Assembly: GCA_964196275.1 (NCBI GenBank)
Contig: CAXMSN010000001.1
Location: 12,769 to 76,768 of the forward strand
Reading direction: 5' to 3'
Origin: an uncultured Kiloniellales bacterium
GTDB taxonomy: Bacteria; Actinomycetota; Acidimicrobiia; Spongiisociales; UBA5794
Length of the DNA stretch: 64,000 nucleotides
Positions 568 through 32,913 of the stretch are shown piece after piece. Numbering within the stretch: position 1 is the stretch's first letter; every line of letters starts with the position of its first letter. The notes beneath the pieces are model-generated. The model searched no databases and had not been told where the DNA came from. It saw nothing but the letters and a program-made list of their open reading frames with translations. Both the position numbers and the translations under genes were made by a program.

Positions 568-713
568 CACCCAGACAACCCTACGCGAACCAGCACCGAT
601 CTTCAGGAGTCAGAGCTCACGGCCACGCGTGAGAATGCCCGTGGTCTGTGGTCTGTGGTCTGTGGTCCGTGGTCCGTGGTCCGTGGTCCGTGGTCCGGAG
701 CGAAGGCGAGCGA

Positions 714-12473: not shown

Positions 12474-13414
12474 GAGCGCGCTTTGAGCGCCTCGATCAGC
12501 TGGGGCACCACCTTGTGGACGTCGCCAACGACGCCTAGGTCAGCGAGACCGAAGATCGGAGCGTCCGGATCCTTGTTGATCGCGATGATGGTCGCGGAAC
12601 CCTTCATGCCGACCAGATGCTGCATGGCTCCCGAGATCCCACATGCGATGTATACAGATGGCTTGACGGTCTTGCCCGTCTGCCCGACCTGGTAGCTGTA
12701 GGGAACCCAGCCAGCGTCTACGACCGCCCTCGTGCCACCAACGGCTCCACCGAGGAGGCCAGCAAGTTCGTGCATCATGTCGAACTTGTCACCGCTCCCG
12801 AGCCCTCGCCCGCCAGACACGACGACGGCTGCAACCTCGAGGTTGGGGCCTTCTGACGCCTCGACATGACGTTCGGTCACCGTTGCCCCACCGGATCGAC
12901 CGGTATCAGGCATCTCCACGGTGTGCACGGTGGGAGTGACGCCGCCTGTCGGTTCCGCTGTGAAGGCCTTTGGCCGCGTGACGATGATCGCGGGACTCTT
13001 GGCTGTGAACTCGGTCGAGATTCCCAGCGTGCCACCAAGGATCTCTGAGAAGACCGTGATGGTGTCGGTTCCGTCGAAGTCGAGGGCATTGGAAATGACT
13101 GGTCTACCCATCCGCGCGGCGAGTCTGCCCGCGATGTCCCTGTCCATGTTCCCTGCACCGAACAACACGATGTCAGCTGACTCCACCAGCGTGGCCATGG
13201 CCGCTGACGCCGGCGCGGAGGCGAGCGTGTCTCCGGCATCGAAGTGGTAGACATCCGAGGCCCCGTGGTCGCCGAGCGCAGCGAAGCTGGCATCGGAGCC
13301 TGCGCCGAGATAGAACACGTGCACATCGCCGTGAGTCTGCGCCTTGCTGATGAGTTCAAGGGAACCTGTCGACGGTACGCCTTCGTCTTCTTCTGCGAAA
13401 ACCCAAATATTCAT
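12470..13414 (-). CDS. etfA: Electron transfer flavoprotein alpha subunit
   Basis: 314 aa. Carries the ETF-alpha FAD-binding C-terminal region ([13 protein letters not shown]...IIAINKD). Confidence 0.85.
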
Positions 13415-18798: not shown

Positions 18799-19272
18799 AT
18801 GGCAACCAAAATCCGCCTGACGCGGCTTGGTAAGAAGAAACAGCCGACGTACCGCGTCGTCGTGATGGACTCCCGCAAGCCCCGTGATGGAAAATACATC
18901 GAGCAACTCGGGATCTACGATCCCCGCCAGCAGCCGTCGCTCATCAAGATCGACAACGAGCGGGCGCTCCATTGGCTTCGCACCGGTGCACAGCCGACAG
19001 AGCGGGCGCAGAAGCTCCTCGAGATTTCAGGAGCCTGGACCCAGTTCAAGGTGGCTAAGGGCGACATCCATACCGTGGCGGACACTCCTGCTGTGGTTGA
19101 GGAAGTTGTAGCTGAGGCGGTCGCTGTTGAGGCCGTTGCGGTTGAAGCAGACGACGGAGCAGAGGATGTCGGAAGTCCGAAGTCCGAGGTCCGAGCAGAA
19201 GAAGAGACAGAAGTAGCAGAAGCAGATCAGCAAGAAGAAGTAACCGCTGACGAGAGTTCGGAAGAAGCATGA
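18799..19272 (+). CDS. rpsP: 30S ribosomal protein S16 with acidic C-terminal extension
   Basis: Starts MATKIRLTRLGKKKQPTYRVVVMDSR. The C-terminal ~60 aa are E/A/V-rich (AVAVEAVAVEADDGAEDV...EETEVAEADQQEE). Confidence 0.9.
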   Translation: MATKIRLTRLGKKKQPTYRVVVMDSRKPRDGKYIEQLGIYDPRQQPSLIKIDNERALHWLRTGAQPTERAQKLLEISGAWTQFKVAKGDIHTVADTPAVVEEVVAEAVAVEAVAVEADDGAEDVGSPKSEVRAEEETEVAEADQQEEVTADESSEEA

Positions 19273-19520
19273 GCCAGGGCGAGATTGTCGAAAAGGTCGT
19301 TACGTACGTTGTATCCGAGATCGTTGACAACCCCGATGACATCGAGGTTGCGATCGTCCCCGATGGCTCCGATGCCGTTGTCGCAGAGGTGCGCACAGCA
19401 AAGAGCGACATGGGTCGTGTGATCGGAAAGCGTGGCCGTGTAGCCCGCGCCATCCGCAACGTTGCAGGTCAGGCCGGAGAAGAAGAGGGCCTCGGCGTCG
19501 ACGTCGACTTCCTCGACTGA
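19269..19520 (+). CDS. KH-domain RNA-binding protein (YlqC/Rv2908c-like)
   Basis: 83 aa with the KH GxxG loop (VIGKRGRVARAIRNV). Sits between rpsP and rimM, as in other actinobacteria. Confidence 0.75.
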   Translation: MSQGEIVEKVVTYVVSEIVDNPDDIEVAIVPDGSDAVVAEVRTAKSDMGRVIGKRGRVARAIRNVAGQAGEEEGLGVDVDFLD

Positions 19521-19521
19521 C

Positions 19522-20085
19522 GTGGCCGAAGGCCATACAGATCGCATCCCCGTCGGATACGTGCGAAGACCGCACGGCATTCGTGGGGATGTTGTCGTTC
19601 GCGGCCTCGTAGACGACGCCGAAGCCAAGTTCGCAGTAGGAGCATCGTTCCTTTCGAACGAAGACCCGCCCGCTGATCTGACGATCGCGATGGTTGCTCC
19701 CTTGAAGGGCGACTACAGGATCCACTTCGAGGAGGTCTCCGACAGAAATCGCTCGGAGGGTCTCCAAGGCGTGCAGATCACAGTTCCGTCCGGCGAACGC
19801 AGGCAACTCGAAGACGACGGGTGGTGGCCCGAGGACCTGATCGGGTGCCAGGTACTCGACGCCGAAGGCAGCGAGATCGCCGTGGTTCGCGAGGTCATCA
19901 TCGGGAGCGCCCAAGATCGCCTGGCGGTAGAGGCGAAGGATGGCTCCACGGCCGAGATCCCATTCGTCGATGCACTCGTCCTCAAGGTCGACATCGCCAA
20001 CGATGAGATCATCGTCGATCTCCCGGACGGCCTGTTCGAGTCGACGGACCACGGACCACGGACCACGGACGGCAGAAGTTCTTAG
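19522..20085 (+). CDS. rimM: Ribosome maturation factor RimM
   Basis: GTG start immediately after the KH-gene stop. Contains the RimM GIRGDVVV motif and a PRC barrel. Its C-terminal residues DHGPRTTDG are encoded by a GGACCAC heptad repeat. Confidence 0.8.
   Translation: MAEGHTDRIPVGYVRRPHGIRGDVVVRGLVDDAEAKFAVGASFLSNEDPPADLTIAMVAPLKGDYRIHFEEVSDRNRSEGLQGVQITVPSGERRQLEDDGWWPEDLIGCQVLDAEGSEIAVVREVIIGSAQDRLAVEAKDGSTAEIPFVDALVLKVDIANDEIIVDLPDGLFESTDHGPRTTDGRSS
20046..20070 (+). repeat. (GGACCAC)x3.5 tandem heptamer inside the rimM 3' coding end
   Basis: A perfect GGACCACGGACCACGGACCACGGAC run. It is the reverse complement of the GTGGTCC unit in the 641-696 array. Confidence 0.8.
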
Positions 20086-20160
20086 ATCTGGCGACAGGCG
20101 GGCGTCGTGGCAGCGATCGCGACGACGTTCAAATCGAGGAAGCGACATTTCGTCCTTTTC

Positions 20161-20194
20161 TGGTCTGTTGTCTGTGGTCTGTTGTCTGTGGTCC
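20161..20194 (+). repeat. (TGGTCTGTTGTCTG)x2 + TGGTCC tandem repeat upstream of icmF
   Basis: Two perfect 14-mers followed by TGGTCC. It ends 25 nt before the icmF ATG. GTGGTC-family motif. Confidence 0.8.
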
Positions 20195-20218
20195 TCCGCC
20201 GTGACCTAATCTCGCCTT

Positions 20219-23200
20219 ATGGCCGACCAACCGACTGTCCGCATCGTTACCGCTACGTCGTTGTTCGACGGGCACGATGCGGCGATCAACATCATGCGCC
20301 GGATCCTTCAGTCGTCAGGTGCTGAGGTCATCCATCTCGGCCACGACCGCTCCGCCGCGACGATCGCCGAAGCTGCGATCGAAGAGGATGCTCACGCCGT
20401 TGCGGTGACCTCGTATCAGGGTGGGCACATCGAGTTCTATCGATATCTCCGCTCTCTGCTCGATGATTCCGGTGGCTCCGACATCCAGATCTTCGGAGGC
20501 GGAGGTGGAACCATTCTCCCTGCAGAAGGCAAGGAACTCCTTGATGAGGGCACCGTCCGAATCTACTCCCCGGATGATGGCCGAAGGATGGGTCTCGAAG
20601 GCATGGTCGATCACCTCATCGCTGCCGCCAGATCCGAGAAGCCGGGTTTTGAAGGGGTATTTGACGGCGTGATGAACGGCGACAGCGCCGCGATCGCCCG
20701 AGCGATCACGCTAGCCGAGAGTGCCGCCGCTTCGAATGCCGAACTCCTCGATGCGATCCGTGATGCCGGAGCGGATACGAACGTCCCTGTGGTCGGATTC
20801 ACAGGCACCGGAGGTGCGGGCAAGTCCTCGATCCTCGACGAACTCGTGCTTCGATTTCGTGCCGATCTCCCTGATCACAGGATCGCCGTCATCTCGGTCG
20901 ATCCCTCCCGGCGTCGAACGGGAGGTGCGCTGCTTGGCGACCGCATCCGGATGAACTCAGTCGTCGGAGATCACTGCTTCATGCGTTCCCTGGCCACGCG
21001 GCAAGCGAACCTGTCGATGTCGCCCCACGTCGCAGACTCGGTGTCCATCGTGAAGGCAGCCGGGTTCGATCTGGTGCTCCTCGAGACATCAGGCATCGGG
21101 CAATCCGATACCCAGATCGTGGATGCTTCTGATGTGTCCGTGTACGTGATGACGCCCGAATACGGCGCTGCGACACAACTCGAGAAGATCGACATGCTCG
21201 ATTTCGCAGATCTGGTCGTCATCAACAAGTCCGACAGGCCTGGCGCCGACGACGCCCTTCGCGATGTTCGCAAGCAGGTCAAGCGGAATCGCAAGATGTT
21301 CGAAGCTTCAGACGAAGAGATCCCCGTTCTCGCAACGGTGGCATCGCGCTTCAACGACGCTGGTACACAAGCCATGTACGAAGCAGTGATGAGTCTCGTT
21401 ACAGACGCGTTCCCTGACGCTCTCGGGCCCATTCGGCACCGATCGGGGACACCGAACACCACGCCACTCATCCCCAGATCACGGGTGCGATATCTGTCAG
21501 AGATCTCCGATGCGGTTCGTGCGTACAACGCAGAGACAGATCGCTTTGTCGATGTTGCCCAAGACCTTCAAGCCATTGACAGGTTGGTCGCGATATCACC
21601 TGAGGCCCATACAGCAGCGGAAGGATCCGTAGAAGAGCTTCCCGAAGATGTAGGTTCGCAACTCGCAGCGTGGGACGCCACCGCCGACGAATACGCCGCA
21701 GATTCGGTGTCGTATGTCGTGAGGGGCAAGACGCTCGACGTTGACAACGCCGTCGAGAGCCTCTCGGGTACGACGTTCCCGAAGGTGATCCACCCAAGGC
21801 TGAGCGGCTGGGGAGACCGTCTGAGGTGGCTGCGCCAGGAGAATCTGCCCGGACGGTTCCCGTTCACTGCGGGAGTGTTTCCGTTCAAACGGGAGCGGGA
21901 AGACCCAACGAGGATGTTCGCCGGGGAGGGCGGCCCCGAGCAGACCAACCGACGATTCCACTACCTCGCGTCCGGCATGCCAGCCATCCGGCTCTCGACC
22001 GCGTTCGACTCTGTGACTTTGTACGGGAACGACCCCGATCCACGGCCAGACATCTACGGCAAGGTCGGGAACTCGGGTGTCTCGGTGTCGACACTCGATG
22101 ACGCCAAGAAGCTGTACTCAGGCTTCGACCTTCGCGATCCCACGACATCTGTATCGATGACGATCAACGGGCCTGCTCCGATGATGCTTGCCTTCTTCCT
22201 GAACACGGCTGTCGATCAGGCGTGCGAGAGGTACATCATCGAAAGTGGGCTTGGCGAACAGGCAGGTGTCACCGTCTCCGAGATCTTCGCCGAGCGCGGC
22301 GTGGAACAGCCCAGGTACCACGGCGCACTTCCCCCGGGACACGACGGGTCTGGTCTCATGTTGCTCGGCATCTCCGGCGAGGACGTTCTCGATGCTGAGG
22401 TGTACGAGAAGATCAAGATCGAGACGCTCGCCGCCGTGCGAGGCACCATACAGGCCGACATCCTCAAAGAGGATCAGGCTCAGAACACATGCATCTTCTC
22501 CACGGAATTCGCCCTTTCGATGCAGGGCGACATGCAGCAGTATTTCATCGACAATGACATCAGGAACTTCTACTCCGTCTCGATATCTGGCTACCACATG
22601 GCGGAAGCCGGAGCCAACCCGATCACGCAGTTGGCCTTCACGCTTGCGAATGGCTTCACCTTCGTCGAGTACTACAGAGCAAGGGGCATGGCCGTTGACG
22701 ACTTCGCACCGAACCTGAGCTTCTTCTTCTCGAATGGCATCGACCCCGAGTACGCCGTCATCGGGAGGGTTGCGAGGCGAATCTGGGCCAAAGCGATGGA
22801 CAACCTGTACGGAGCCTCGGAGCGGAGCCAGAAGCTCAAGTACCACATCCAAACATCAGGTCGGTCGCTCCATGCACAGGAGATCGGTTTCAATGACATT
22901 CGAACGACGTTGCAAGCCCTGTATGCGATCTACGACAACACGAACTCGCTCCACACGAACGCGTACGACGAAGCGATCACGACTCCGACAGAGGACTCCG
23001 TGCGTCGAGCACTTGCTATCCAGCTGATCATCAACAAGGAGCTCGGCCTTGCCAAGAACGAGAACCCCTTGCAAGGCTCGTTCATCATCGAAGAACTGAC
23101 AGATCTCGTTGAGGAAGCGGTTCTTGTCGAATTCGACCGGCTCACCGACCGAGGCGGAGTCCTCGGTGCGATGGAGTCGATGTACCAGCGATCGAAGATC

Positions 23201-23539
23201 CAGGAGGAGTCGATGCGGTACGAGCATCTCAAGAACAACGGAGAACTTCCCATCGTCGGTGTCAACACGTTCCTTTCTACCGATGGCTCACCCTTCGTCA
23301 TTCCAGAAGAAGTGATCAGATCCGACAGCGCAGCCAAGGACCAGCTGATCGCCGACACGGCGACACTGAAGGATTCGATGGCCAAACAAGCGGAGGCCTC
23401 GGTTCGTGAGGTCCAGGCGGCGGCTCTGGCCGGCGAGAACGTATTCGCCGCCCTCATGGAAGCGGCAAAGGTCTGTTCCCTCGGAGCCATGACCCACGCC
23501 CTTCACGCCGTAGGCGGTCAGTACCGCCGGAACATGTAA
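20219..23539 (+). CDS. icmF: Fused isobutyryl-CoA mutase IcmF (B12-binding domain + MeaB-like G-protein + mutase substrate domain)
   Basis: 1106 aa. N-terminal B12 domain ([12 protein letters not shown]), central P-loop GTPase ([12 protein letters not shown], MeaB/ArgK-like), C-terminal methylmalonyl-CoA-mutase-like TIM barrel. The domain order is diagnostic of IcmF. Confidence 0.85.
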
Positions 23540-23555
23540 TCGCTCGGCTACGCCT

Positions 23556-23708
23556 CGCTCCGGACCATGGACTACGAGGCTTCCCCGTATTACGTATGAC
23601 GTATGACGTACTCCGGAGCGGCCTCGACGTTGTTCTGCTGATTGATCGATCAGAGCCGAGCGGCTTGGTAGAGAGCTACGGGCATTTCCGTGGTCCGTAG
23701 TCCTCTGC
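23556..23708 (+). repeat. Composite TACGTA-hairpin plus GTCCGTAGTCCTCTGC element, copy 2
   Basis: Inverted repeat CGCTCCGG (23556-63) / CCGGAGCG (23613-20) enclosing GGACCATGGACTAC and GTATTACGTATGACGTATGACGTAC. It is followed at 23688-23708 by CCGTGGTCCGTAGTCCTCTGC. It lies between convergent icmF and the Rieske-TPP gene. Confidence 0.55.
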
Positions 23709-25639
23709 TAGTACTGAAGCTTGCTTGAGCGGATGTCCAGGACGCCTGGGCCCTTGGTGGCGAAGAGTTCGGTCATTCCTTCGTCAAGATCTGCGGGCGT
23801 TTCGACGCGTCGGCCGTACATGTCGAGGGAGGTCGCCATGTTGGCCCACGATGGGTTTTTGAGCTTCGTTGCCCATACGTGCGTGTTTGCGAGTTGCTGT
23901 TCTGCGGTGATCTTTCCAAGCTCGTCGTTGGAGAGGACGAGCATCTTCACGTTGAGGTCGTGGAGAGCAACGGTCGCGAGTTCCAGTGCGTACTGGCCGA
24001 ATCCGCCGTCGCCTGCGATGCCCACGATGGTCTTCTCCGGATACGCGGCCGCAGCACCGATCGCGGCCGGCAATGCGTATCCGATCGAACCAAGCCATCC
24101 CGACATCGCGACCCGTTGCCCGTTCGCCTGGAAGTACCGGCCAAAGGAGTAGGTCGAATTGCCAACGTCGAGTGCGACGATCGCGTCGTGGGGAATGTGT
24201 CGTTCAAGAGCCGTGAAGATCGCTGCACTCGTCAGCCGTCCGTCACGATCGAGTCCCAATCTGGATCGCTTCCTCTCGTTCCACCAGGCCTTTCGCGTTT
24301 CCAACCACTCCCGGAGTTCCGGACGATCCTTCGCTGCCGTTACGGTTGTCAGCGCTGTTGCGGTCTCCCCAGCGTCAGCCAGAGCGAACACCTCCACGTT
24401 CGCACCGTTGCGACGAGACGCAAGCGGGTCGGTATCGATCCGAACGACGCGGCGTTTCGGTGTGATCCCCGTGTGGGGAGCCATGCCTCCGCCGAACACG
24501 ACGATCAGATCCGACCGCGTCTGCATCGCGGCGGAAACGGGTGTGCCCGACCTGCCGAGAACGCCTGTCGACAGCGCCGACGTCTCGTCGACGCAACCCT
24601 TCGCCGGGAAGGTCGTCGCAACGGCGGCGTCAACGTGTTCCGCCAGGTCGAGGATGGCGCTGGCGTGCGGTCCGCCGCCCCTGCCGATCACGAACAGCGG
24701 CGTTTCAGCCTCGTCGATCATCCTGGCGATCTCGACGACATCCTGGGGCGTGGGGGAGAGGTGGTTTTCGAGCGGGCGGATGGGGACGTGTACATCGTCA
24801 GTGGCTGGCAATGTCTGGACGTCGTCGGGAATCACAAGATGGGAGATGTCATGCTGCGTTGTTGCATACGTAAGCATGTCGGCTGCCACATCGGGGCCGT
24901 CGCTCGCAGACATTCGCTTTGACCATCCGGCGACAGGCCCCATAGCGCTTACAAGCGGAACTTCCTGGAACGCCCTGGTTCCGAGCAGTTTCGTCGGAAT
25001 CTGGCCCGTGATAGCGAGCAGCGGCGTGTTCGAGAGTTTCGCGTCCCACATTCCGGTGTACAGGTTCGTCGCACCCGGACCCGCGATAGCGAAACAGACA
25101 GCGGGCTTCCCTGTCAGCTTTCCGAACGACGATGCAGCGAACGCTGCCGCACCTTCGTGTCGCACGCCGATGAATCGAAGGTCGCCACGTTTCTCTGCCG
25201 CTCGGAAGGCATCGGCGAGGCCGAGATTCGAGTGTCCGACTATGCCGAAGACCGCTGTGATCCCACCCTCGACGAGTTCGTCCACGACCTGTGTCATGAG
25301 CGTTGTGTCATGGATGACTGGTTCCTCGACTCCAATGTGGATTCCGTCGTCGCGCTCCTCGACGGGAAAGCATTCAACACGGTCATCGAACGGGCCGGGT
25401 GTCTCGCCCGTCTTCGGGTCGTATTCCCAGCCATGCCATGGACAGACGAGCCACTGACCCTCAATGAGACCTTCCCCGAGCGGCCCCCCCTGGTGTGGGC
25501 AGCGGTTGGAGACGGCTCCCCAGCCGTCCTCGGTCCGCGACAGCGCGAGCGTGAAGTGGCCTGCTTGAACCACCGTGACGGTTCCCACGGCGATCTCATC
25601 TGCGTCGGCAACCCGGAACCAAGTAAGCGAATCGGTCAT
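23708..25639 (-). CDS. Rieske [2Fe-2S] domain fused to a thiamine-pyrophosphate/FAD-type (acetolactate synthase/pyruvate oxidase-like) enzyme
   Basis: N-terminal Rieske ligand motifs CPHQGGPL and CPWHGWEY. These are followed by TPP_enzyme N/M/C architecture: catalytic Glu in RHEGAAAFAA, and GDGGFGQY...LSNDELGKI matching the TPP/Mg motif. ATG 25639 preferred over the in-frame GTG 25657, which lies inside a repeat. Confidence 0.8.
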   Translation of the reverse strand: MTDSLTWFRVADADEIAVGTVTVVQAGHFTLALSRTEDGWGAVSNRCPHQGGPLGEGLIEGQWLVCPWHGWEYDPKTGETPGPFDDRVECFPVEERDDGIHIGVEEPVIHDTTLMTQVVDELVEGGITAVFGIVGHSNLGLADAFRAAEKRGDLRFIGVRHEGAAAFAASSFGKLTGKPAVCFAIAGPGATNLYTGMWDAKLSNTPLLAITGQIPTKLLGTRAFQEVPLVSAMGPVAGWSKRMSASDGPDVAADMLTYATTQHDISHLVIPDDVQTLPATDDVHVPIRPLENHLSPTPQDVVEIARMIDEAETPLFVIGRGGGPHASAILDLAEHVDAAVATTFPAKGCVDETSALSTGVLGRSGTPVSAAMQTRSDLIVVFGGGMAPHTGITPKRRVVRIDTDPLASRRNGANVEVFALADAGETATALTTVTAAKDRPELREWLETRKAWWNERKRSRLGLDRDGRLTSAAIFTALERHIPHDAIVALDVGNSTYSFGRYFQANGQRVAMSGWLGSIGYALPAAIGAAAAYPEKTIVGIAGDGGFGQYALELATVALHDLNVKMLVLSNDELGKITAEQQLANTHVWATKLKNPSWANMATSLDMYGRRVETPADLDEGMTELFATKGPGVLDIRSSKLQY

Positions 25640-25650
25640 GGATGCAGAGT

Positions 25651-25692
25651 AGACCACGGACCACGGACTACAGACTTCGGACTACGGAACCT
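25651..25692 (+). repeat. Degenerate heptad array AGACCAC-GGACCAC-GGACTAC-AGACTTC-GGACTAC-GGAACCT
   Basis: Six 7-nt units lying 12 nt upstream of the Rieske-TPP ATG. It reads GTGGTCC on the gene's sense strand. It lies between the lipoprotein gene and the Rieske-TPP gene. Confidence 0.7.
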
Positions 25693-26545
25693 CGATTACC
25701 ACGATCGTGCCTACTTCGGGGTCGATGGCGACGTCCCCTGAGCCGACGAAGATCTCGACCGTGCCCGACGGCCCGTCTGGGATCGAGACGACGAAGGCCT
25801 GCCACGCATCTGTCCATCCTGGCAGCGAGTGCGAGATGTCCGTGACGACCTCGCCGTCTGACACGAGTTGTACCTTGGTGGATGGCTCGCTCGGTGCTGC
25901 GTATCCCTCGACGGTGAAGGGGTAGATCGTCGGACCTGCCGGAGGGGTCACCACGATGGCGGTTCTGGACGTTCCCGCTCCAATCGGGTGGGCATCCGAC
26001 TCCGATGCGATCACGTCGATGACGAGCGTCGACGGGGAGGCAGTCACGAAGGCGCGTGCGGCGATAGCCAGACCATGCCGTCCGTGGATATCGATCGACA
26101 TCGCGTCGTCATCACCTCGTACGACGAACGCTCTTTCAACGAGGTTCCCATCGGCGAGCATGTCGGCGACTGCAGTGTCCGTGAGTTCGGCTGGAAGGGC
26201 AATACGAACCACCGATGCAAAGCTGAGAACCGAGACGCCGGTTGGTCCGAGCGTCTTGGCTGGTGCTCCTGATGTTGACGCGAACGCGATGGTTATCCGC
26301 TCGCACGAAGCAGACCCGTCCCACCGGATGCTCGAGAGCGTCGTGGCATCGCCAACGTCCTCGCCAAGGGCAGCGACGAGTCCGTCCTCACCGAATTTCA
26401 GATCGCCGCTCTTGCAGATCTCGTCGGACGGCTGGGTCGTCGTTGTCGTCACGACCACTGACGTGGTCGTCACCGATGGCGATGGCTCCCCGGGCGAGCA
26501 GGAAGACACCGCAAGGGCGATCAATGCAAGAGTCCACCAGCGCAT
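25682..26545 (-). CDS. Hypothetical secreted lipoprotein
   Basis: Signal peptide plus lipobox (MRWWTLALIALAVSSCS), then a Thr-rich linker (VTTTSVVVTTTTTQ). No recognisable catalytic motif. Sits upstream of the Rieske-TPP gene on the same strand. Confidence 0.6.
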   Translation of the reverse strand: MRWWTLALIALAVSSCSPGEPSPSVTTTSVVVTTTTTQPSDEICKSGDLKFGEDGLVAALGEDVGDATTLSSIRWDGSASCERITIAFASTSGAPAKTLGPTGVSVLSFASVVRIALPAELTDTAVADMLADGNLVERAFVVRGDDDAMSIDIHGRHGLAIAARAFVTASPSTLVIDVIASESDAHPIGAGTSRTAIVVTPPAGPTIYPFTVEGYAAPSEPSTKVQLVSDGEVVTDISHSLPGWTDAWQAFVVSIPDGPSGTVEIFVGSGDVAIDPEVGTIVVIEVP

Positions 26546-26614
26546 GGCTCGCAGGCTACCGCCCGAAGGTTCACACACGAGGAAGCACCGGAGGACGGAC
26601 GTTTTGAGCACGAC

Positions 26615-28045
26615 TTGACAAATGGTCGGGAATTCCCGACAATACCGCCGATGGATGATCTCACCACGTCAGAAGACGAACTCACGACGCCTGGAGAAGA
26701 GTCAGCACCGGCTGATCCGCCACGGTTCGGGCGTACCTTCCTGATCGTGTGGTTCGGACAGGTGATATCGCTCGTAGGCAGCGGACTCACGTGGTTCGGG
26801 CTGAGCATCTGGGTCTTTCTTGAGACGGGATCCGTCACGTCCCTGGCGATGGTGCTCCTTGCATCGAACCTGCCCCGGATCCTTCTGTCTCCGGTCGCCG
26901 GTGCCCTCGTCGACCGGTGGGACCGCCGTTGGGCGATGATCCTGTCCGACGCAGGATCGGGAGTCGGCACGATCATCATCTTCGTGCTGTTCCTCAACGA
27001 TGCGGCGAGCATCACTGCGCTGATCGTCGTGGGCGCCTTCTCCTCAGTGTTCCAGGCGTTCCAATGGCCGGCGTATCAAGCATCGATCTCGCTTCTCGTC
27101 CCGAAGGAGAGTTACCAGCGTGCATCTGGCATGGTGCAGATGGCTGAGGCGATCTCGCAACTCATCGCCCCGTTACTGGCTGCGGTTGCCATCGTCGGGC
27201 TTGGCGTGACGGGACTCGTTCTCATCGATGTGGTCACGTTCACGTTTGCAATCGTGACGTTGCTCGTCGTCCGATTTCCTCGGCCACCGAAGAGTGAGGT
27301 AGGTGAGGAGTCGAAGGGCTCCTTGTGGCAGGAGACGCTGTTCGGTTTCAAGTACATCTTCGCCCGTCATGGTTTGTTCGCTCTTCTCATGTTCTTCGCA
27401 GCGGTGAACTTTGCGTTCGGCTTCCTCGGCCCGATGCTGATCGCTTTCATGCTCAGCGTCGGCAGTGAGACGACGCTTGGCCTGACTGTCACCATCGGAA
27501 GCACGGGCATGCTCGTGGGTTCGATCGTCGCAGCGACCTGGGCGGAGGCAGAACACAAGGTCAAAGGGATCCTTCTTGCCTCGATGGTGCTGGGCACCGT
27601 GATGATCACGATGGGTTGGACAACTTCGCTGGTCATCATCGTTGCATCGATGTGGATTGGGATGTTCTCCGTTCCGATCCTTGGTGCGATGAGCCAGGCG
27701 ATATGGATGGTGAAGGTGGAGCCTGACGTGCAAGGGCGCGTGTTCGCGGTGCGGGGAATGCTCGCTCAGTTGACGTCGCCGCTGGCGCTCTTGGTCGCTG
27801 GACCGCTTGCCGACCGGGTGTTCGTTCCGCTGATGACGGAGTCGTCGGGTCTCGGTGACTTCCTTCAGTCACTCATGGGGAGCGGAACTGCCAGTGGATA
27901 CGGACTGTTCTTCGTGGCGATCGGCGTGTTCGTGATCGCCTCAGCTTTCGTCGCGTGGTCGTACGAACCGTTACGCAATCTTGAGACGGATGTTCCCGAC
28001 GCCGTAGGTCTTCCGTCCGTCGAGACTGCCGCCGACGGCGTCTGA
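26615..28045 (+). CDS. MFS transporter
   Basis: 476 aa with about 12-14 predicted TM helices (LIVWFGQVISLVGSGL...). The alternative start at Met13 (26651) is plausible. Sits directly upstream of cofG. Confidence 0.8.
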   Translation: MTNGREFPTIPPMDDLTTSEDELTTPGEESAPADPPRFGRTFLIVWFGQVISLVGSGLTWFGLSIWVFLETGSVTSLAMVLLASNLPRILLSPVAGALVDRWDRRWAMILSDAGSGVGTIIIFVLFLNDAASITALIVVGAFSSVFQAFQWPAYQASISLLVPKESYQRASGMVQMAEAISQLIAPLLAAVAIVGLGVTGLVLIDVVTFTFAIVTLLVVRFPRPPKSEVGEESKGSLWQETLFGFKYIFARHGLFALLMFFAAVNFAFGFLGPMLIAFMLSVGSETTLGLTVTIGSTGMLVGSIVAATWAEAEHKVKGILLASMVLGTVMITMGWTTSLVIIVASMWIGMFSVPILGAMSQAIWMVKVEPDVQGRVFAVRGMLAQLTSPLALLVAGPLADRVFVPLMTESSGLGDFLQSLMGSGTASGYGLFFVAIGVFVIASAFVAWSYEPLRNLETDVPDAVGLPSVETAADGV

Positions 28046-28075
28046 GAGTCCGCCGAGGCGTGATACCTTCTCTCC

Positions 28076-29212
28076 GTGCTCGGTACGCCTGACCCAGATC
28101 TTGCGCTTCGGTTCCTCGATTCTTCTGTCGACGGTTCCGAACTGCTTTCAACGGCATCCTCGCTGAGGAATGACGGTCACGGCACGACGATCACGTACTC
28201 GAAGAAGGTGTTCGTGCCCATCACGACGATGTGCAGGGACACGTGCACCTACTGCACCTTCGTGAAGCCTCCCGGAAACGGTGGCGAATATCTTGAGCCC
28301 GAGGACGTGCTGGCGATAGTGACGGCCGGGGACGAACTCGGCTGCACAGAAGCGCTGTTGACCCTTGGCGACCGACCCGAGGACAAGTGGCCGCAGGCGC
28401 GTCAGTTCCTCTCTGACCATGGGGCTGCTTCGACGCTCGACTACGTGGTGATGATGTCGGAGTTGATACGGGCCGAGACCGGGCTCTTCCCTCACGCCAA
28501 TCCGGGGATCATGGACCGCGAGGCGGTCGCATCGCTGCGCAAGACCAACGTGTCAATGGGCCTCATGCTTGAGAACATCTCGCACCGGCTTACCGAGCCG
28601 GGAATGCCCCATCACAACTGTCCCGACAAGATCCCCGCAGTTCGGGTCGAGACGATCCGGGAAGCCGGTCGCCAGAACGTTCCGTTCACAACCGGCATCC
28701 TTGTCGGTATCGGAGAGACCGCCGAAGAGATCGTCGAAAGCCTGTTCGCGCTGAGGGACCTTCAGACGGAGTTCGGGCATCTTCAGGAGTTCATCATCCA
28801 GAACTTCAGGGCGAAAGCCGACACCCGGATGCGCAACGCACCGGAGCCATCCATACCGTTCTTCGTCCGTGTCGTTGCGCTCGCACGATGGATACTCGGA
28901 GCCGAGGCGAACCTGCAGGTGCCCCCGAACCTGACGGACGACTTCGGTGTCTATCTCGATGCGGGAATCAATGACTGGGGCGGTGTGAGCCCCTTGACGA
29001 TTGACTGGGTCAACCCAGAGGCACCATGGCCGCAGCTCGAAAGACTCGATGCGGTGACGAGCGCCCATGGGTTCTCATTGCGACCCCGCCTCCCCGTCTA
29101 CCCCGAGTACCTCACGGCGCAGTGGATCGATGCCGACCTGTTCGGAGCGGCGTCGGCCGCTGCTACTGAGGACGGCTACGCTGCGACCTCCGAATCTGAG
29201 AAGGCCAGATGA
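28076..29212 (+). CDS. cofG: 7,8-didemethyl-8-hydroxy-5-deazariboflavin (FO) synthase subunit CofG (radical SAM)
   Basis: Radical-SAM CxxxCxxC motif (CRDTCTYCTF) and CofG-like length. ATGA overlap with cofH. Confidence 0.8.
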   Translation: MLGTPDPDLALRFLDSSVDGSELLSTASSLRNDGHGTTITYSKKVFVPITTMCRDTCTYCTFVKPPGNGGEYLEPEDVLAIVTAGDELGCTEALLTLGDRPEDKWPQARQFLSDHGAASTLDYVVMMSELIRAETGLFPHANPGIMDREAVASLRKTNVSMGLMLENISHRLTEPGMPHHNCPDKIPAVRVETIREAGRQNVPFTTGILVGIGETAEEIVESLFALRDLQTEFGHLQEFIIQNFRAKADTRMRNAPEPSIPFFVRVVALARWILGAEANLQVPPNLTDDFGVYLDAGINDWGGVSPLTIDWVNPEAPWPQLERLDAVTSAHGFSLRPRLPVYPEYLTAQWIDADLFGAASAAATEDGYAATSESEKAR

Positions 29213-31080
29213 ACGAGATCACGTTCCTCCAACTACGACCAGTCGATGCGGTCAACGAGATCTGGGCTTCGACGCGCCGCAGAGAAGGAACCCTTGTCGC
29301 TGAGGTGGAGAGACCGACATCTGAGGATGTTCTCAGCGCCCAGAAGGGCGGTCTCATCGTGGCGAGCGGGACAGCGGCCGCTGATGCCCCGGCCTACGTC
29401 GTGATCCCCGCTGAAGCATCGTTGCTCGCCAAGCGGAATCTCGCCGGATGGAGGGTCACGGTGCTCGACGAGGGCTCCCGCATGGATGTGCTCGACGCCC
29501 TTGCCTTCACGCGAGCGGCGTACCTGAGGACGAACCGAAGCTCGGTCCTTCAGGCCGCTGGGATGGTCGGCATTCCCGGAGGAAAAGCCGTCGTGTCTGT
29601 GTTCGTGGATGACGTAGACGACGCCGTCACCGCTGTCTCGCACGGTGCAGGTGACCTTCTGCTCAGAGATTGGGACACGGAGCGGATCGGCGAGCTGAGA
29701 GAGGCGATCGCCGAGTTCAGACTGGTAGAGCGCACCGCGTTTCCCTCCACCGTTACGTATGACGAAGCCGCAGCGGAAATGGAGAAGGGTGCATTCAGCG
29801 CTTACCTGAATCAGATCGATGGATCCGGGCGGGCACGTCCCAGAGTCGACTGGGCGCCAGGCAAGGACCTGGATACACCCGACCCAGAGTTCCGGCTTTC
29901 GTCCGCATGGAAGGACTCGTCATGGGCCGATGGCAGGCGTGCTCACTTCGAAGACGCAACGTCCGACGTAGCCGGAATACTCGCCCGTGCCCTTGCGGGA
30001 ACCGCACCGACGAAGGATGAGGTCGAGGCGCTCTTCCGAGCACACGGCACCGACGTTGAGGCGATCGCCGACGTCGCAGACACGCTCAGAGAGCAGATCG
30101 TCGGGGACGATGTCACCTTCGTCGTGAACAGGAACATCAACTACACGAACCAGTGCTACTTCAAGTGTGGATTCTGTGCGTTCTCCAAGGGGCCCCGATC
30201 GCTGGATCTGAGGGGCGAGCCGTATCTCATGTCGATCGAAGAAGTGGTCGAGAGGTCGGTCGAGGCTTGGGGGACCGGGGCCACAGAGGTGTGCCTCCAG
30301 GGAGGCATCCATCCCGAGTTCACAGGCCACTTCTATGTCGACCTGGTAACCGCGATCAAAGCCGAACTTCCTGACATCCACATCCATGGCTACACGCCCC
30401 TCGAGATCTGGCAAGGCGCCGAAACCGCCGGTGTCAGCGTGAGGGAGCTCTTGGTCGAGTTGCAGCAGGCGGGTCTCGGGACACTCCCGGGTACGGCAGC
30501 TGAGATTCTCGACGACGATGTCCGGCTGACGCTGTGCCCGGACAAGATCCGCACGAGCCAATGGGCCGAGGTCATGCTCACCGCTCATGACATAGGGCTA
30601 CGCACCACTTCGACGATCATGTTCGGGCACGTCGACGGCCCACGGTCGTGGGCGAGCCACATCGAGGTCCTGAGGCGTATCCAGCGCAAAACCGGGGGCT
30701 TCACAGAGTTCGTCCCCCTCCCTTTCGTCCACATGGGCTCACCGATCTGGCTGAGGGGTCAGTCTCGGCCCGGCCCCACATGGGATGAGGTCATCCTGAT
30801 GCACGCGGTGTCGCGCATCGCCTTCATCGGTCTGATCGACAACATTCAGGCATCGTGGGTCAAGTTGGGCCTCGATGGTGCCGGAGCGCTTCTGCGGTCC
30901 GGGTGCAACGACGTCGGTGGAACCCTGATGGATGAGTCGATATCGAGAGCTGCAGGTGCGTCCCACGGAACGCAAGTAACCGCCGCCGACTTCCGTGATC
31001 TGATCTTCGACCTCGATCGCAACCCGGTCAGACGGAACACCACATACGAGCCCATCGAATCCGGTCTCACCATCCAGTAG
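29209..31080 (+). CDS. cofH: FO synthase subunit CofH (radical SAM) with ~230-aa N-terminal domain of unknown function
   Basis: 623 aa. Residues ~240-623 are CofH-like (NINYTNQCYFKCGFCAFSKG radical-SAM motif). Residues 1-230 have no recognisable motif; they include the stretch GGLIVASGTAAADAPAYVVIPAEASLL. Confidence 0.75.
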   Translation: MNEITFLQLRPVDAVNEIWASTRRREGTLVAEVERPTSEDVLSAQKGGLIVASGTAAADAPAYVVIPAEASLLAKRNLAGWRVTVLDEGSRMDVLDALAFTRAAYLRTNRSSVLQAAGMVGIPGGKAVVSVFVDDVDDAVTAVSHGAGDLLLRDWDTERIGELREAIAEFRLVERTAFPSTVTYDEAAAEMEKGAFSAYLNQIDGSGRARPRVDWAPGKDLDTPDPEFRLSSAWKDSSWADGRRAHFEDATSDVAGILARALAGTAPTKDEVEALFRAHGTDVEAIADVADTLREQIVGDDVTFVVNRNINYTNQCYFKCGFCAFSKGPRSLDLRGEPYLMSIEEVVERSVEAWGTGATEVCLQGGIHPEFTGHFYVDLVTAIKAELPDIHIHGYTPLEIWQGAETAGVSVRELLVELQQAGLGTLPGTAAEILDDDVRLTLCPDKIRTSQWAEVMLTAHDIGLRTTSTIMFGHVDGPRSWASHIEVLRRIQRKTGGFTEFVPLPFVHMGSPIWLRGQSRPGPTWDEVILMHAVSRIAFIGLIDNIQASWVKLGLDGAGALLRSGCNDVGGTLMDESISRAAGASHGTQVTAADFRDLIFDLDRNPVRRNTTYEPIESGLTIQ

Positions 31081-31154
31081 TCGGTGCGCGAGATCGCGTG
31101 CACCAACCCCTCGGAACCCGTGAACGTCGGTGCGAATGCCGGTAGCCTTGTCGC

Positions 31155-31748
31155 ATGGCGACCAGACAGACGTCGGATGATGTGCGCGATGCGATGTTCG
31201 ATGCTGCGCGGGACCTGATCGCGCAGATCGGTTACAGCGAAATGTCTCACGCCGATATCACCGCCGCCGTCGGCATGGGGCGCACGACCTTCTATGAACA
31301 TTTCGCCTCCAAGGAGGATCTCCTGGTGGCGATGGTCAATCGAGATCTCCCCGAGGTGACGGTCGAGATCGTCGAGGCGGTCCCAGCCGATCTGCCACCG
31401 GACGAACGCCTCGCTCAGCTTGCCATGCGGATGGTTCAGTTCGTTGGCACGGACCACATGGGTCTCATCCTGCACACGGAGGTACCGCGCCTCTCCCCGG
31501 AGGCGCAGAAGGCGATCTCGGAGGCCCATGAGGGCCTTGCATCAGAATTCGCGAACGTCTACCGGGCGGGCGTCGTGTCTGGCGTGTTCAGGCGATATCC
31601 ACCACGCCTTGCCGGCCGGATGATCGAGCAGATGATCATGACCGGGGGCCAGGTCGTGATGGACTCCGATGACCCTGTCGGTCAGGTCGATTCGATCGCC
31701 CAAGACACAGCCTCGCTCCTCGTGGCGGCTTTCAGGGCTGGCGCCTGA
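31155..31748 (+). CDS. TetR-family transcriptional regulator
   Basis: N-terminal HTH (ITAAVGMGRTTFYEHFASKEDLL). 197 aa. Ends 21 nt upstream of trmD. Confidence 0.8.
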   Translation: MATRQTSDDVRDAMFDAARDLIAQIGYSEMSHADITAAVGMGRTTFYEHFASKEDLLVAMVNRDLPEVTVEIVEAVPADLPPDERLAQLAMRMVQFVGTDHMGLILHTEVPRLSPEAQKAISEAHEGLASEFANVYRAGVVSGVFRRYPPRLAGRMIEQMIMTGGQVVMDSDDPVGQVDSIAQDTASLLVAAFRAGA

Positions 31749-31769
31749 CACCCGAGATGAAGACCTGAG

Positions 31770-32438
31770 ATGAAGTTCCACGTCGTCACACTGTTCGAGG
31801 AGTTCTTCGGGTCGCCTCTTGCCACGTCTCTGGTCGGCAAAGCGATCGAAGAGGGTCTCATCGAGATCGAGTTCCACGACCCACGCGACCATGGCAAAGG
31901 TGTGCACCGTCAGGTCGATGATGCACCGTTCGGTGGGGGCGCTGGGATGGTGATGACGGTCGAGCCACTGGCGAAAATGCTGGAGCCTCTTGCAGATACA
32001 CACAGGGTTCTGCTGACACCGGCTGGAGCGCCGCTGACGCAGTCTCACCTCGATCGATTCGCCGAGATCGAGGAACTCACTCTTGTCTGCGGCCGGTACG
32101 AGGGCATCGATGAGCGAGTGGTCGAGCACTTCATCGATGAGGAGGTGTCGCTCGGAGACTTCGTCCTCCTTGGGGGAGAGGCCGCGGCAGCCGTGATCAT
32201 CGAGGGCACCGGAAGGCTGCTACCAGGCGTCATAGGAAATCCTGCATCATCCGAGTCCGAGTCCTTCCGAGGAGATGGTCTCCTTGAGGAACCCCAGTAC
32301 ACGAGACCCGCTGACTTTCGAGGATGGAAGGTTCCCGAGGTCCTACTCAGTGGGGATCACGGGAAGATCGCAGAGTGGCGAAGGCAACAGCGGGCGCACC
32401 GTACGGCGGAGCGGCGACCGGATCTCCTCGACGAGTAG
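31770..32438 (+). CDS. trmD: tRNA (guanine37-N1)-methyltransferase
   Basis: Begins MKFHVVTLFEEFFGS...GKAIEEGL. SPOUT-family TrmD. Sits upstream of rplS. Confidence 0.9.
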   Translation: MKFHVVTLFEEFFGSPLATSLVGKAIEEGLIEIEFHDPRDHGKGVHRQVDDAPFGGGAGMVMTVEPLAKMLEPLADTHRVLLTPAGAPLTQSHLDRFAEIEELTLVCGRYEGIDERVVEHFIDEEVSLGDFVLLGGEAAAAVIIEGTGRLLPGVIGNPASSESESFRGDGLLEEPQYTRPADFRGWKVPEVLLSGDHGKIAEWRRQQRAHRTAERRPDLLDE

Positions 32439-32504
32439 GGCTGATACGGTCGGCGTGCGTATAGAATCCCGTCCCTACCTCACCCTTTCATTTCGGAGGA
32501 CCCC

Positions 32505-32852
32505 GTGAATACGATCGAGCAGATCGAGAATGCGCAACTGCGCGATGACATCCCGGACTTCGGTCCTGGTGACACCGTCGTTGTGAACGTGCGAGTCATT
32601 GAAGCCGGCCGCGAGCGCGTCCAGGCTTTCGAAGGTGTCGTGATCGCCAGGAGCGGCGGTTCGGGCGCCCGAGCGACCTTCACGGTGCGCAAGATCAGCT
32701 TCGGAGTCGGCGTCGAGCGCATCTTTCCCCTTCACGCTCCCATCGTTCAATCGATCGAAGTTACGAGGCGGGGCGACGTGCGTAGAGCCAAGCTCTACTA
32801 CCTGCGTGACCGCATCGGCAAGGCGACCCGTATCAAGGAAAAGCGCGACTAG
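32505..32852 (+). CDS. rplS: 50S ribosomal protein L19
   Basis: 115 aa beginning MNTIEQIE and ending [19 protein letters not shown]. Typical L19. Confidence 0.9.
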
Positions 32853-32883
32853 TCGTCGATGCGCATCGTCAGACTCGTGACAC

Positions 32884-32913
32884 CGGCCTGTGCGAACGGG
32901 CCGGTTTGTCGTT
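32884..32913 (+). terminator. Putative intrinsic terminator/attenuator after rplS
   Basis: CCGGCCT-GTGCGAAC-GGGCCGG hairpin followed by TTTGTCGTT. Moderate stem, U-tract interrupted. Confidence 0.35.

Follow-up and report, generated by a model that had tools for sequence, protein, structure and literature searches.

Gene order, composition and predicted transcription units of the interval between rimM and trmD in an uncultured member of the Acidimicrobiia

Genes of the rimM-trmD interval

The window analysed here (64 kb, positions 12,769 to 76,768 of contig CAXMSN010000001.1, assembly GCA_964196275.1, from an uncultured bacterium placed by its GTDB lineage in the class Acidimicrobiia) carries the genes of the trmD operon of other bacteria, rpsP, rimM, trmD and rplS, as orthologs in the usual order and all on the + strand, but rimM is not directly followed by trmD. 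Exactly seven genes, assigned with Pfam and NCBIfam, occupy the 11.7 kb between the rimM stop codon at 20085 and the trmD ATG at 31770, two of them on the opposite strand: icmF, a gene for a fusion of Rieske and thiamine pyrophosphate (TPP) enzyme domains, a lipoprotein gene, a major facilitator superfamily (MFS) transporter gene, cofG, an extended cofH, and a gene for a TetR-family regulator (Table 1). An earlier reading of the same DNA from its letters alone (the original prediction) had named this seven-gene interval, the loss of the rimM-trmD adjacency of other bacteria, and the spacing of 21 nt from the TetR stop codon at 31748 to trmD, and the sequence bears out all three.

The interval lies among housekeeping genes. 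To its left are recG, plsX, smc, ftsY and the series ffh-rpsP-KH-rimM, and to its right trmD, rplS, lepB, DUF2469, YraN, rpsB, tsf, frr, cdsA, dxr, ispG, proS, nusA, infB, truB and ribF. Because RimM and TrmD pass the equivalog cut-offs of their families and have their usual context (ffh-rpsP-KH on one side, rplS-lepB-DUF2469 on the other), they are the housekeeping copies, which excludes the possibility, raised earlier, that they are paralogs. The probable start of rimM is near 19522, directly 3' of the KH gene stop codon; the true starts of the lipoprotein gene (26545) and the MFS gene (26651) supersede the ends of their open reading frames (ORFs) at 26611 and 26615.

Table 1. Genes, predicted expression signals and repeats at the rimM-trmD interval and related sites in the window
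Feature	Coordinates	Strand	Basis or remark
Heptad array, largest of its family (GTGGTCT x3 + GTGGTCC x5)	639-697		Downstream (3') of a gene with a cold-shock domain, 19 kb away from the block
rimM (longest ORF)	19462-20085	+	Pfam RimM and PRC_RimM; TIGR02273, 100 bits (cut-off 66)
rimM-icmF spacer hairpin (predicted)	20046-20194	+	Arms 20046-20076 (GGACCAC x3) and 20164-20194 (GTNGTCY x5), 87 nt apart
Putative icmF -10, TAATCT	20207-20212	+	6 nt before the icmF ATG
icmF (fused isobutyryl-CoA mutase/MeaB GTPase)	20219-23539	+	NF045497, Pfam
Convergent icmF/Rieske-TPP spacer with inverted heptads	23560-23703		GGACCAT GGACTAC at 23560-23575; GTGGTCC GTAGTCC at 23688-23703
CGTATGA x3.6 array	23586-23610		Within the icmF/Rieske-TPP spacer; Tandem Repeats Finder (TRF)
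Rieske-TPP fusion gene	23708-25639	-	Pfam
Rieske-TPP -10-like TACTCT	25646-25651	-	6 nt before the ATG
Heptad array filling the spacer to the lipoprotein stop codon	25651-25692	-	Abuts the Rieske-TPP -10-like TACTCT
Lipoprotein gene (287 aa)	25682-26545	-	Signal peptide and lipobox
Putative lipoprotein -10, TAGCCT	26553-26558	-	Equivalents in most relatives compared (read by eye)
Putative MFS promoter, TTGACA-17-GACAAT	26615-26643	+	Promoter scan, 10/12 matches
MFS promoter palindrome, GTCGGGAATTCCCGAC	26625-26640	+	Perfect; between -35 and -10
MFS transporter gene (Mef/EntS-like efflux type)	26651-28045	+	Pfam MFS_1
cofG -10-like TACCTT	28064-28069	+	
cofG (FO synthase subunit)	28076-29212	+	TIGR03550
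cofH (FO synthase subunit), N-terminally extended	29209-31080	+	TIGR03551
Putative TetR -10, TAGCCT	31143-31148	+	6 nt before the TetR ATG
TetR-family regulator gene	31155-31748	+	Pfam TetR_N and TetR_C_24
trmD	31770-32438	+	NF000648, 296 bits (cut-off 220)
Putative rplS -10, TAGAAT	32462-32467	+	Leader with GGAGGA Shine-Dalgarno sequence
rplS, with promoter and leader	32462-32852	+	GTG start at 32505
Terminator-like hairpin after rplS	32882-32905	+	Longest stem in the terminator scan

Gene order and composition among relatives

A scan with TrmD, taking one genome per species, gave 80 loci with TrmD identities of 59-78%, nearly all from metagenome-assembled genomes (MAGs) of Acidimicrobiia/Actinomycetota, and all window proteins were mapped onto these loci by tblastn; 68 of them, with at least 1.5 kb upstream of trmD, were informative, and 46 had at least 9 kb. 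In none of the 68 does rimM lie less than 1 kb from trmD, nor was an empty rimM-trmD site present among them, and in the 24 loci that have both genes the gap between them ranges from 1.07 to 12.7 kb. The most frequent occupant is cofH, found within 10 kb upstream of trmD in 52 of the 68 loci (36 of the 46 with the longer flank), followed by the lipoprotein gene (26 loci), the MFS gene (21) and a TetR gene within 300 nt of trmD (19); icmF was found in nine and the Rieske-TPP gene in six, the 10-kb flank being often too short to reach icmF. The Rieske-TPP gene and the trmD-adjacent TetR gene are confined to the nearer relatives. The content of the interval is thus layered, with cofG-cofH the most widespread, the lipoprotein, MFS and TetR genes next, and icmF and the Rieske-TPP gene in the nearest relatives only. 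Other lineages have unrelated cargo in the same interval, including genes for a glyceraldehyde-3-phosphate dehydrogenase, an acyl-CoA dehydrogenase, a SulP permease and a YbjQ-like protein, and the interval behaves as a long-lived variable slot. In many lineages the lipoprotein gene directly follows rimM on the other strand, including some that lack cofG and cofH (loci L043, L051, L052 and L073).

Three further contigs were found through homologs of the Rieske-TPP protein. One of them (L162, 94% Rieske-TPP identity) has the complete order ffh-rpsP-KH-rimM-icmF-(Rieske-TPP, lipoprotein)-MFS-cofG-cofH-TetR-trmD-rplS. Another (L164, 73% identity) keeps the whole order, with a decayed MFS gene and extra genes between icmF and the Rieske-TPP gene, and the third (L163, 75% identity) has the left half, rimM-icmF-Rieske-TPP-lipoprotein, where its sequence stops. 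In L164 (8283-9017 and 13720-13932), only three pieces of the MFS gene are left, and tblastn aligns the final ~70 codons of icmF apart from the rest, in a weaker segment of 54% identity, so genes of the block are being lost as well as gained. A metagenome scan with IcmF, tried as another source of gene order, returned mostly ~60%-identical loci of low GC content from other phyla, a single locus (L082) being informative.

The nearest genomes are all MAGs, as an assembly or binning chimera would require, yet the cofH-TetR-trmD junction is identical in an independent Logan assembly (L001), the whole order recurs in a Joint Genome Institute (JGI) metagenome contig (L162) and in a contig of 214.7 kb (L164, GCA_003359175.1), and the composition of the window is uniform; the probability that the block is a product of misassembly is negligible.

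The original prediction called the block accessory; in the sense of a recent or strain-specific gain, this is contradicted both by the gene order kept in relatives and by a composition equal to that of the flanks in GC content, codon use and tetranucleotides, the very outcome that had been named in advance as refuting it. The GC content of the block is 0.615 as compared to 0.607 +/- 0.017 for the rest of a window that is uniform at ~61%, its GC content at third codon positions is 0.737 as compared to 0.697 +/- 0.037, and its tetranucleotide distances (11.5-14.4) are inside the window-wide range (mean 12.1, standard deviation 1.3). Among the relatives, the identities of cofH and trmD rise and fall together (rho 0.44, p = 0.004), and the correlations of TetR with trmD (rho 0.69) and of cofH with ffh (rho 0.83) may be set beside that of the comparison pair trmD and rplS (rho 0.58). 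No tRNA gene is present in the 64-kb window, none of the seven block genes, all of which are assigned, has a mobility function, and no repeats flank the block other than arrays of 7-nt units (heptads). Direct repeats that could serve as attachment (att) sites were sought at the flanks; only the heptads qualified, and they fail to be conserved across relatives. Thus deviant composition, an empty site, and mobility genes, tRNA genes or att-like repeats, the marks by which a genomic island is recognized, are all wanting.

A recent island, gained piecewise by horizontal transfer with the heptads marking its junctions, would account for the broken rimM-trmD adjacency that is typical elsewhere, for the direct-orientation GGACCAC-type arrays flanking icmF and the Rieske-TPP gene, for the confinement of these two genes to the nearest relatives, and for a gene of the DUF222-HNH endonuclease type between rimM and icmF in L082. 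Against it are the recurrence of this order in relatives assembled independently (94% and 73% identity) and of its left half in another (75%), the constant separation of rimM from trmD in related loci, the native composition, block genes that diverge in step with their flanks, the lack of tRNA genes in the window and of mobility functions in the block, and arrays that are missing at identical junctions (the left one in L162, all of them in L163 and L164). Such a recent origin is very improbable. The DUF222-HNH gene (L082, 486-1811, - strand; the IcmF of this locus is 73% identical) is the sole mobility-associated gene in the interval across all loci seen. Of the proposal that the block was acquired in pieces, the layered content across lineages upholds one part, and the other part, the use of the arrays as evidence, fails because they are not conserved at the junctions. 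The shared order in relatives, the native composition, the lack of tRNA and mobility genes, and divergence in step with the flanks indicate instead that the split is old and inherited.

Predicted transcription units and heptad arrays

The sequence TANNNT occurs 5-8 nt before the start codon of 17 of the 59 window genes, as compared to 0-4 genes at displaced spacings (background rate 0.0012 per position), which suggests that leaderless transcription is common in this organism; the seven-gene block contributes five of the 17, namely icmF and the Rieske-TPP, lipoprotein, cofG and TetR genes. Examples of such genes start at 7445, 20219, 28076, 31155, 34395, 35374, 43765, 48077 and 62363. Scans for sigma-70 promoters and terminators did not rise above shuffled sequences and were used only where position and conservation agreed. 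A scan of 17-35 kb against Rfam (E <= 0.1) gave a single chance match to a snoRNA, so no riboswitch or known leader is present there.

Several of the candidate promoters recur in relatives. TANNNT is found 6-7 nt before the icmF start in all five genomes compared (the window, L162, L163, L164 and L082). The -10-like sequence of the Rieske-TPP gene is kept in the window and L162 only, with a Shine-Dalgarno sequence instead in L163 and L164. The MFS transcript would be leaderless, as the ATG is only 7 nt after the putative -10, and the -35, a palindrome-like core and the -10 of this promoter are kept in eleven relatives (L003, L005, L007, L010, L011, L014, L018, L020, L036, L044 and L162); the palindrome has no second copy anywhere in the window. 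The TetR gene is preceded at 6-8 nt by TA(G/C/T)(C/T)CT in 11 of the 11 nearest relatives, as well as in L162 and L164. L164 has a perfect, operator-like palindrome of its own (GGGAGAAATTTCTCCC), ~15-30 nt upstream of the icmF start (17042, - strand), which abuts the -10 sequence TATCCT and occupies the place of the heptad array of the window.

We infer that these promoter-like motifs fire as promoters, in which case the region would be divided into six units: rpsP-KH-rimM, followed by a hairpin; icmF; the lipoprotein gene followed by the Rieske-TPP gene, on the opposite strand; MFS-cofG-cofH, whose promoter is close to consensus and contains a palindrome resembling an operator; TetR-trmD, driven by the conserved -10 next to the TetR start; and rplS, with its own promoter and leader. 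In this lineage the rpsP-rimM-trmD-rplS operon probably broke between rimM and trmD long ago, with vertical inheritance of the interval since; within it, cofG-cofH usually comes after a divergent lipoprotein gene and an MFS gene, and in the nearer relatives before a TetR gene that adjoins trmD.

According to the original prediction, trmD and rplS might both depend on read-through or on a promoter inside the insert. For trmD the idea holds up, a promoter within the insert being likely in view of the -10 before TetR that is conserved in the window and 13 relatives; rplS is a different matter, as a -10 of its own precedes it in 69 of 79 loci. Comparison of the TetR-trmD spacers revealed no separate -10 for trmD in the window or in the relatives of this group, so trmD most likely depends on the TetR promoter, to which read-through from the MFS promoter may add. 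The 21-nt gap, together with the missing -10, makes TetR and trmD presumably co-transcribed. TetR regulators within 35 bp of a neighbor on the same strand have been classed as likely to be co-transcribed with it (Ahn et al. 2012, PMC3511530), and the spacing in the window falls under this limit. In 18 related loci, 14-37 nt separate a TetR gene from the trmD downstream of it. A second group of relatives has TetR, with a Shine-Dalgarno sequence, directly after cofH, and there a TANNNT that overlaps the TetR stop codon precedes the trmD ATG by 7 nt; the solution to trmD expression thus appears to differ between sub-lineages.

A 13-nt tandem duplication (ACCCGAGATGAAG and ACCTGAGATGAAG, 31750-31775, detected by TRF) spans the trmD start and creates a mini-ORF of three codons (ATG AAG ACC TGA) that ends 1 nt before the trmD ATG; the equivalent in L162 reads ATG ACG TCC TGA. 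This mini-ORF may serve as a termination-reinitiation relay from TetR to trmD.

The MFS and TetR genes co-occur in most loci and adjoin each other in L057, which suggests that TetR may act on the MFS promoter, perhaps repressing it through the palindrome. Another palindrome, CCGAC-N5-GTCGG, was considered as a shared TetR operator, being upstream of TetR in L002, L007, L008 and L010, and was rejected; it is not kept in the window or L162, and the MFS palindrome has no copy elsewhere, so that no common TetR operator can be claimed. A stronger proposal is that selection keeps the arrangement, with TetR controlling trmD (and perhaps MFS-cofG-cofH) through a ligand such as FO or a deazaflavin-related metabolite, which would link N1-methylguanosine-37 (m1G37) methylation of tRNA to the production or export of deazaflavin. 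The close TetR-trmD spacing in 18 loci would fit, especially as it is kept despite insertions of 2-3 kb between cofH and TetR in L006-L008 and L010, and so would the conserved -10 before TetR with none for trmD in this group, the association of MFS with TetR, and the operator-like palindrome in the MFS promoter. Nevertheless, trmD has its own TANNNT in the second group, TetR is 2-2.7 kb from trmD in L017, L024, L030 and L032 and is missing from this position in many lineages, no operator common to the TetR and MFS promoters could be found, and nothing ties the ligand to FO. Regulatory coupling of this kind is unlikely.

To judge from its conserved -10 and its Shine-Dalgarno leader, rplS is independent of the insert: TANNNT stands 25-60 nt upstream of the start in the 69 of 79 related loci, most of which also have a GGAGG-like sequence ahead of it. 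The leader that follows the -10 (within 32462-32504) is pyrimidine-rich and gave no match to the L19 leader of Rfam; it could be a lineage-specific autoregulatory element.

The heptad arrays at 20046-20070, 20161-20194 and 25651-25692 that the original prediction took for borders of the block and of its icmF/Rieske-TPP part do exist, TRF delimiting them as 20044-20070, 20161-20193 and 25652-25688, and they are not random: five arrays of at least three heptad units are present in the window as compared to 0.2 in shuffled sequences. Further arrays are located at 639-697, 19168-19194, 23560-23575, 23586-23610 and 23688-23703. The two supposed borders between rimM and icmF (20046-20076 and 20164-20194) form an inverted repeat of 31 nt, 81% complementary, for which an RNA fold of -84.8 kcal/mol is calculated (z = -5.8; none of 200 shuffled sequences is as stable). 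Being the arms of one hairpin, they are not borders. The icmF/Rieske-TPP spacer likewise folds into hairpins (-79.6 kcal/mol, z = -4.5), and arrays of unrelated units are found in the same spacer in L003, L008, L082 and L162.

The left array is within the coding sequence of rimM, of which it makes up the last ~8 codons. The C-terminus of RimM is LFESTDHGPRTTDGRSS in the window, whereas L162, the relative at 94% identity, lacks this arm and has LFDSVEDGSS instead; the window has gained three heptads in frame, adding seven residues to RimM. Arrays occupy the same three spacers in L162, though the units (GTTGTCT and GTCGTCT; AGACCTC) and the copy numbers are not those of the window, the one between the Rieske-TPP and lipoprotein genes being longer, paired and of different units beside the same -10, and L163 and L164 have no period-7 arrays despite identical gene junctions. 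Period 7 is the commonest repeat class both in Acidimicrobiia loci (64/Mb over 1.24 Mb) and in control loci of other phyla (39/Mb over 1.14 Mb). As the arrays are also found inside the supposed sub-block and 19 kb away, are changed in L162 and absent from L163 and L164, and belong to the class that leads in the control loci, they do not mark the borders of an acquisition.

Heptanucleotide arrays are present in 31 of 85 sequences (84 Acidimicrobiia loci and the window), with units that vary from genome to genome; they are positioned after icmF, after trmD or before gene starts, often as inverted pairs with long hairpins in spacers (for example, L003 1775-1929, L005 10662-10738, L035 2353-2451, L082 5656-5913 with 25 heptad copies after icmF, and L026 10-217). 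The inverted arms keep matching each other while the unit changes. The arrays are probably slippage-prone simple repeats, younger than the gene order, that tend to form inverted hairpin pairs in spacers.

Alternatively, the hairpins could be functional, as factor-independent terminators or insulators, or as stabilizers of mRNA ends, between newly juxtaposed units, with the structure kept while the sequence turns over. Inverted partners within 250 nt outnumber direct ones (26 and 7 of 80 arrays), the folds are strongly stable, arrays follow the icmF stop codon in five genomes, with unrelated units, and the trmD stop codon in another group, and the arrays are locally enriched around the icmF and Rieske-TPP spacers. 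On the other hand, the heptad hairpins have no U-tract and do not qualify as intrinsic terminators, L163 and L164 lack arrays at the same junctions, the arms at 25651-25692 and 639-697 are single and unpaired, and period 7 tops the repeat classes in the control loci of other phyla too. A function of this kind is possible, although we consider it doubtful. Both regulatory ideas can be combined for a family-level clade of Acidimicrobiia, in which trmD would have lost the ribosomal-operon promoter and become the second cistron of a leaderless TetR-trmD transcript, TetR would also gate FO synthesis and export by MFS-cofG-cofH through the palindrome, and, in parallel, inverted heptad arrays would arise de novo as hairpin modules, selected for structure and free in sequence, that insulate juxtaposed units; this joint scenario is quite unlikely.

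The reading preferred here, to which we give a probability of about 80%, is that the operon break is derived yet old and vertically inherited, that the interval has its own internal promoters, and that the heptads are younger simple-repeat hairpins that are uninformative about how the interval was assembled. Several points weigh against it. Without a species tree, gains and losses are inseparable, and the nested distribution and TrmD identity are the sole grounds for speaking of layered acquisition. The sample consists of the 80 genomes nearest by TrmD, with cultured references outside it, so the age of the split within the Acidimicrobiia is not fixed. The promoters and operon boundaries are all predictions from conserved motifs; the sigma-70 scan of the whole window was not enriched (2 sites as compared to 2.6 expected), and the MFS palindrome is exact only in the window and L162. 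Finally, five of the six period-7 arrays of the window with at least 2.8 copies are within 6.5 kb around rimM, icmF and the Rieske-TPP gene, where ~0.4 would be expected (Poisson, 64/Mb), an excess that ordinary simple repeats alone do not explain, any more than they explain the recurrence of arrays of unrelated sequence just after the icmF stop codon in five genomes.

Block proteins and comparison with known systems

Six of the proteins encoded in the interval can be described further. IcmF exceeds the cut-off of its equivalog family NF045497 (1620 bits as compared to 1500) and combines B12-binding, MeaB and MM_CoA_mutase domains in one chain (Pfam). The Rieske-TPP protein (643 aa) joins a Rieske [2Fe-2S] domain to TPP_enzyme_N/M/C domains similar to those of pyruvate oxidase and acetolactate synthase (Pfam); it reaches the cut-off of no NCBIfam family, and its homologs form a large family in the Acidimicrobiia (69-94% identity), with more distant members in records named as Chloroflexi (44-49%). 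The lipoprotein has its signal peptide and lipobox in MRWWTLALIALAVSSC and no match in Pfam (even at E <= 10) or NCBIfam; its AlphaFold model (predicted local distance difference test, pLDDT, 85) is all-beta with two beta-sandwich domains and gave no specific match in the PDB, and its 82 homologs are all unnamed or hypothetical, the named sources being mostly Acidimicrobiia/Actinomycetota MAGs. The MFS protein matches TIGR00900 below the cut-off, and the corresponding gene call in L162 is 464 aa long.

CofG (TIGR03550, 441 bits as compared to a cut-off of 213; radical-SAM motif CRDTCTYC) and CofH (TIGR03551, 494 bits as compared to 374; CYFKCGFC) both belong to their FO synthase families by score and by possession of the CxxxCxxC motif, and the ATG of cofH overlaps the cofG stop codon by 4 nt (ATGA). 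As TIGR03551 covers only residues 268-616 of the 623 in CofH, about 250 N-terminal residues are extra. This extension (residues 1-257, 29209-29980) consists of a (beta/alpha)8 barrel-like domain of ~205 aa and a disordered linker; its AlphaFold model (pLDDT 84) has eight strand-helix repeats and matches only generic TIM barrels in the PDB, and nothing in Pfam matches it at E <= 10. It is ~99% covered in the sampled relatives with cofH complete on the contig, and its homologs come only from Acidimicrobiia/Actinomycetota sources, some being listed as short stand-alone proteins. The idea that it is the decayed CofG half of an FbiC fusion was discarded, since a profile comparison aligned the radical-SAM parts only and gave it no sequence support. 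No F420-pathway families are among the Pfam-assigned genes of the 64-kb window.

These observations change general biology little, such rearrangements of conserved operons having been seen often, and they counsel caution against calling such blocks islands from one genome. They also map predicted promoters in a class that has been little studied and is mostly uncultured, namely the TANNNT elements of leaderless genes, an MFS promoter near consensus and a separate one for rplS, and flag three uncharacterized features of the Acidimicrobiia: the barrel-extended CofH, the Rieske-TPP fusion enzyme, and the conserved two-domain lipoprotein next to rimM. If TetR does control trmD, an essential gene of tRNA modification would be subject to an unusual kind of regulation, and gating of both TetR-trmD and MFS-cofG-cofH would put tRNA modification under small-molecule control.

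The leaderless transcripts of Actinobacteria, as studied in Mycobacterium and Streptomyces, have a TANNNT -10 element ~7 nt before the start codon, and both motif and spacing are equal in the window, where they are known from sequence motifs.

FO synthase consists of separate CofG and CofH proteins in archaea and cyanobacteria, and of the fused FbiC in other Actinobacteria. The proteins of the window resemble the split form in exceeding the NCBIfam equivalog-domain cut-offs and in having CxxxCxxC, and, unlike FbiC, they are not fused. CofH differs from known CofH proteins in its ~205-aa N-terminal barrel-like domain, which has no Pfam match and no detectable similarity to CofG.

In the TetR/TetA paradigm, a TetR-family regulator is paired with an efflux pump. 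The window is comparable in that TetR shares its locus with an MFS gene of efflux type that has a palindrome inside its promoter. Unlike the paradigm, TetR is not divergent from the pump gene but 3 kb downstream of it, beyond cofG-cofH, its putative co-transcribed neighbor encodes an essential tRNA methyltransferase, and the operator is a predicted one.

The STRR sequences of cyanobacteria are heptanucleotide simple repeats. Like other prokaryotic repeats of this kind, the arrays of the window exceed chance and are tandem 7-nt units in spacers near gene starts and ends, variable among near relatives, with period 7 dominant. In contrast to STRR sequences and to the TAACTGA repeats, the unit is genome-specific rather than one shared heptamer and a third of the arrays are inverted pairs with long hairpins, and one arm lengthens a reading frame, that of rimM, by three heptads (7 codons). 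Heptanucleotide repeats are reported to outnumber all other long simple repeats in the majority of the prokaryotic genomes surveyed, and intergenic TAACTGA repeats occur in Beggiatoaceae, Cyanobacteria and Bacteroidetes (PMC4679880).

The locus as a whole belongs to a familiar class of rearrangement, in which a conserved operon is interrupted in one lineage and the gap is taken up by genes with promoters of their own. The trmD operon is rpsP-rimM-trmD-rplS in E. coli and rpsP-KH-rimM-trmD, followed by rplS-lepB, in Mycobacterium. The window has the orthologous genes in the same order and orientation, with ffh upstream and lepB and DUF2469 downstream, but differs from the canonical operon in the distance from rimM to trmD (11.7 kb here and 1-12.7 kb in relatives), in the position of trmD 3' of a TetR gene, and in an rplS gene with its own predicted promoter and leader, so that the operon appears to be split into at least three units.

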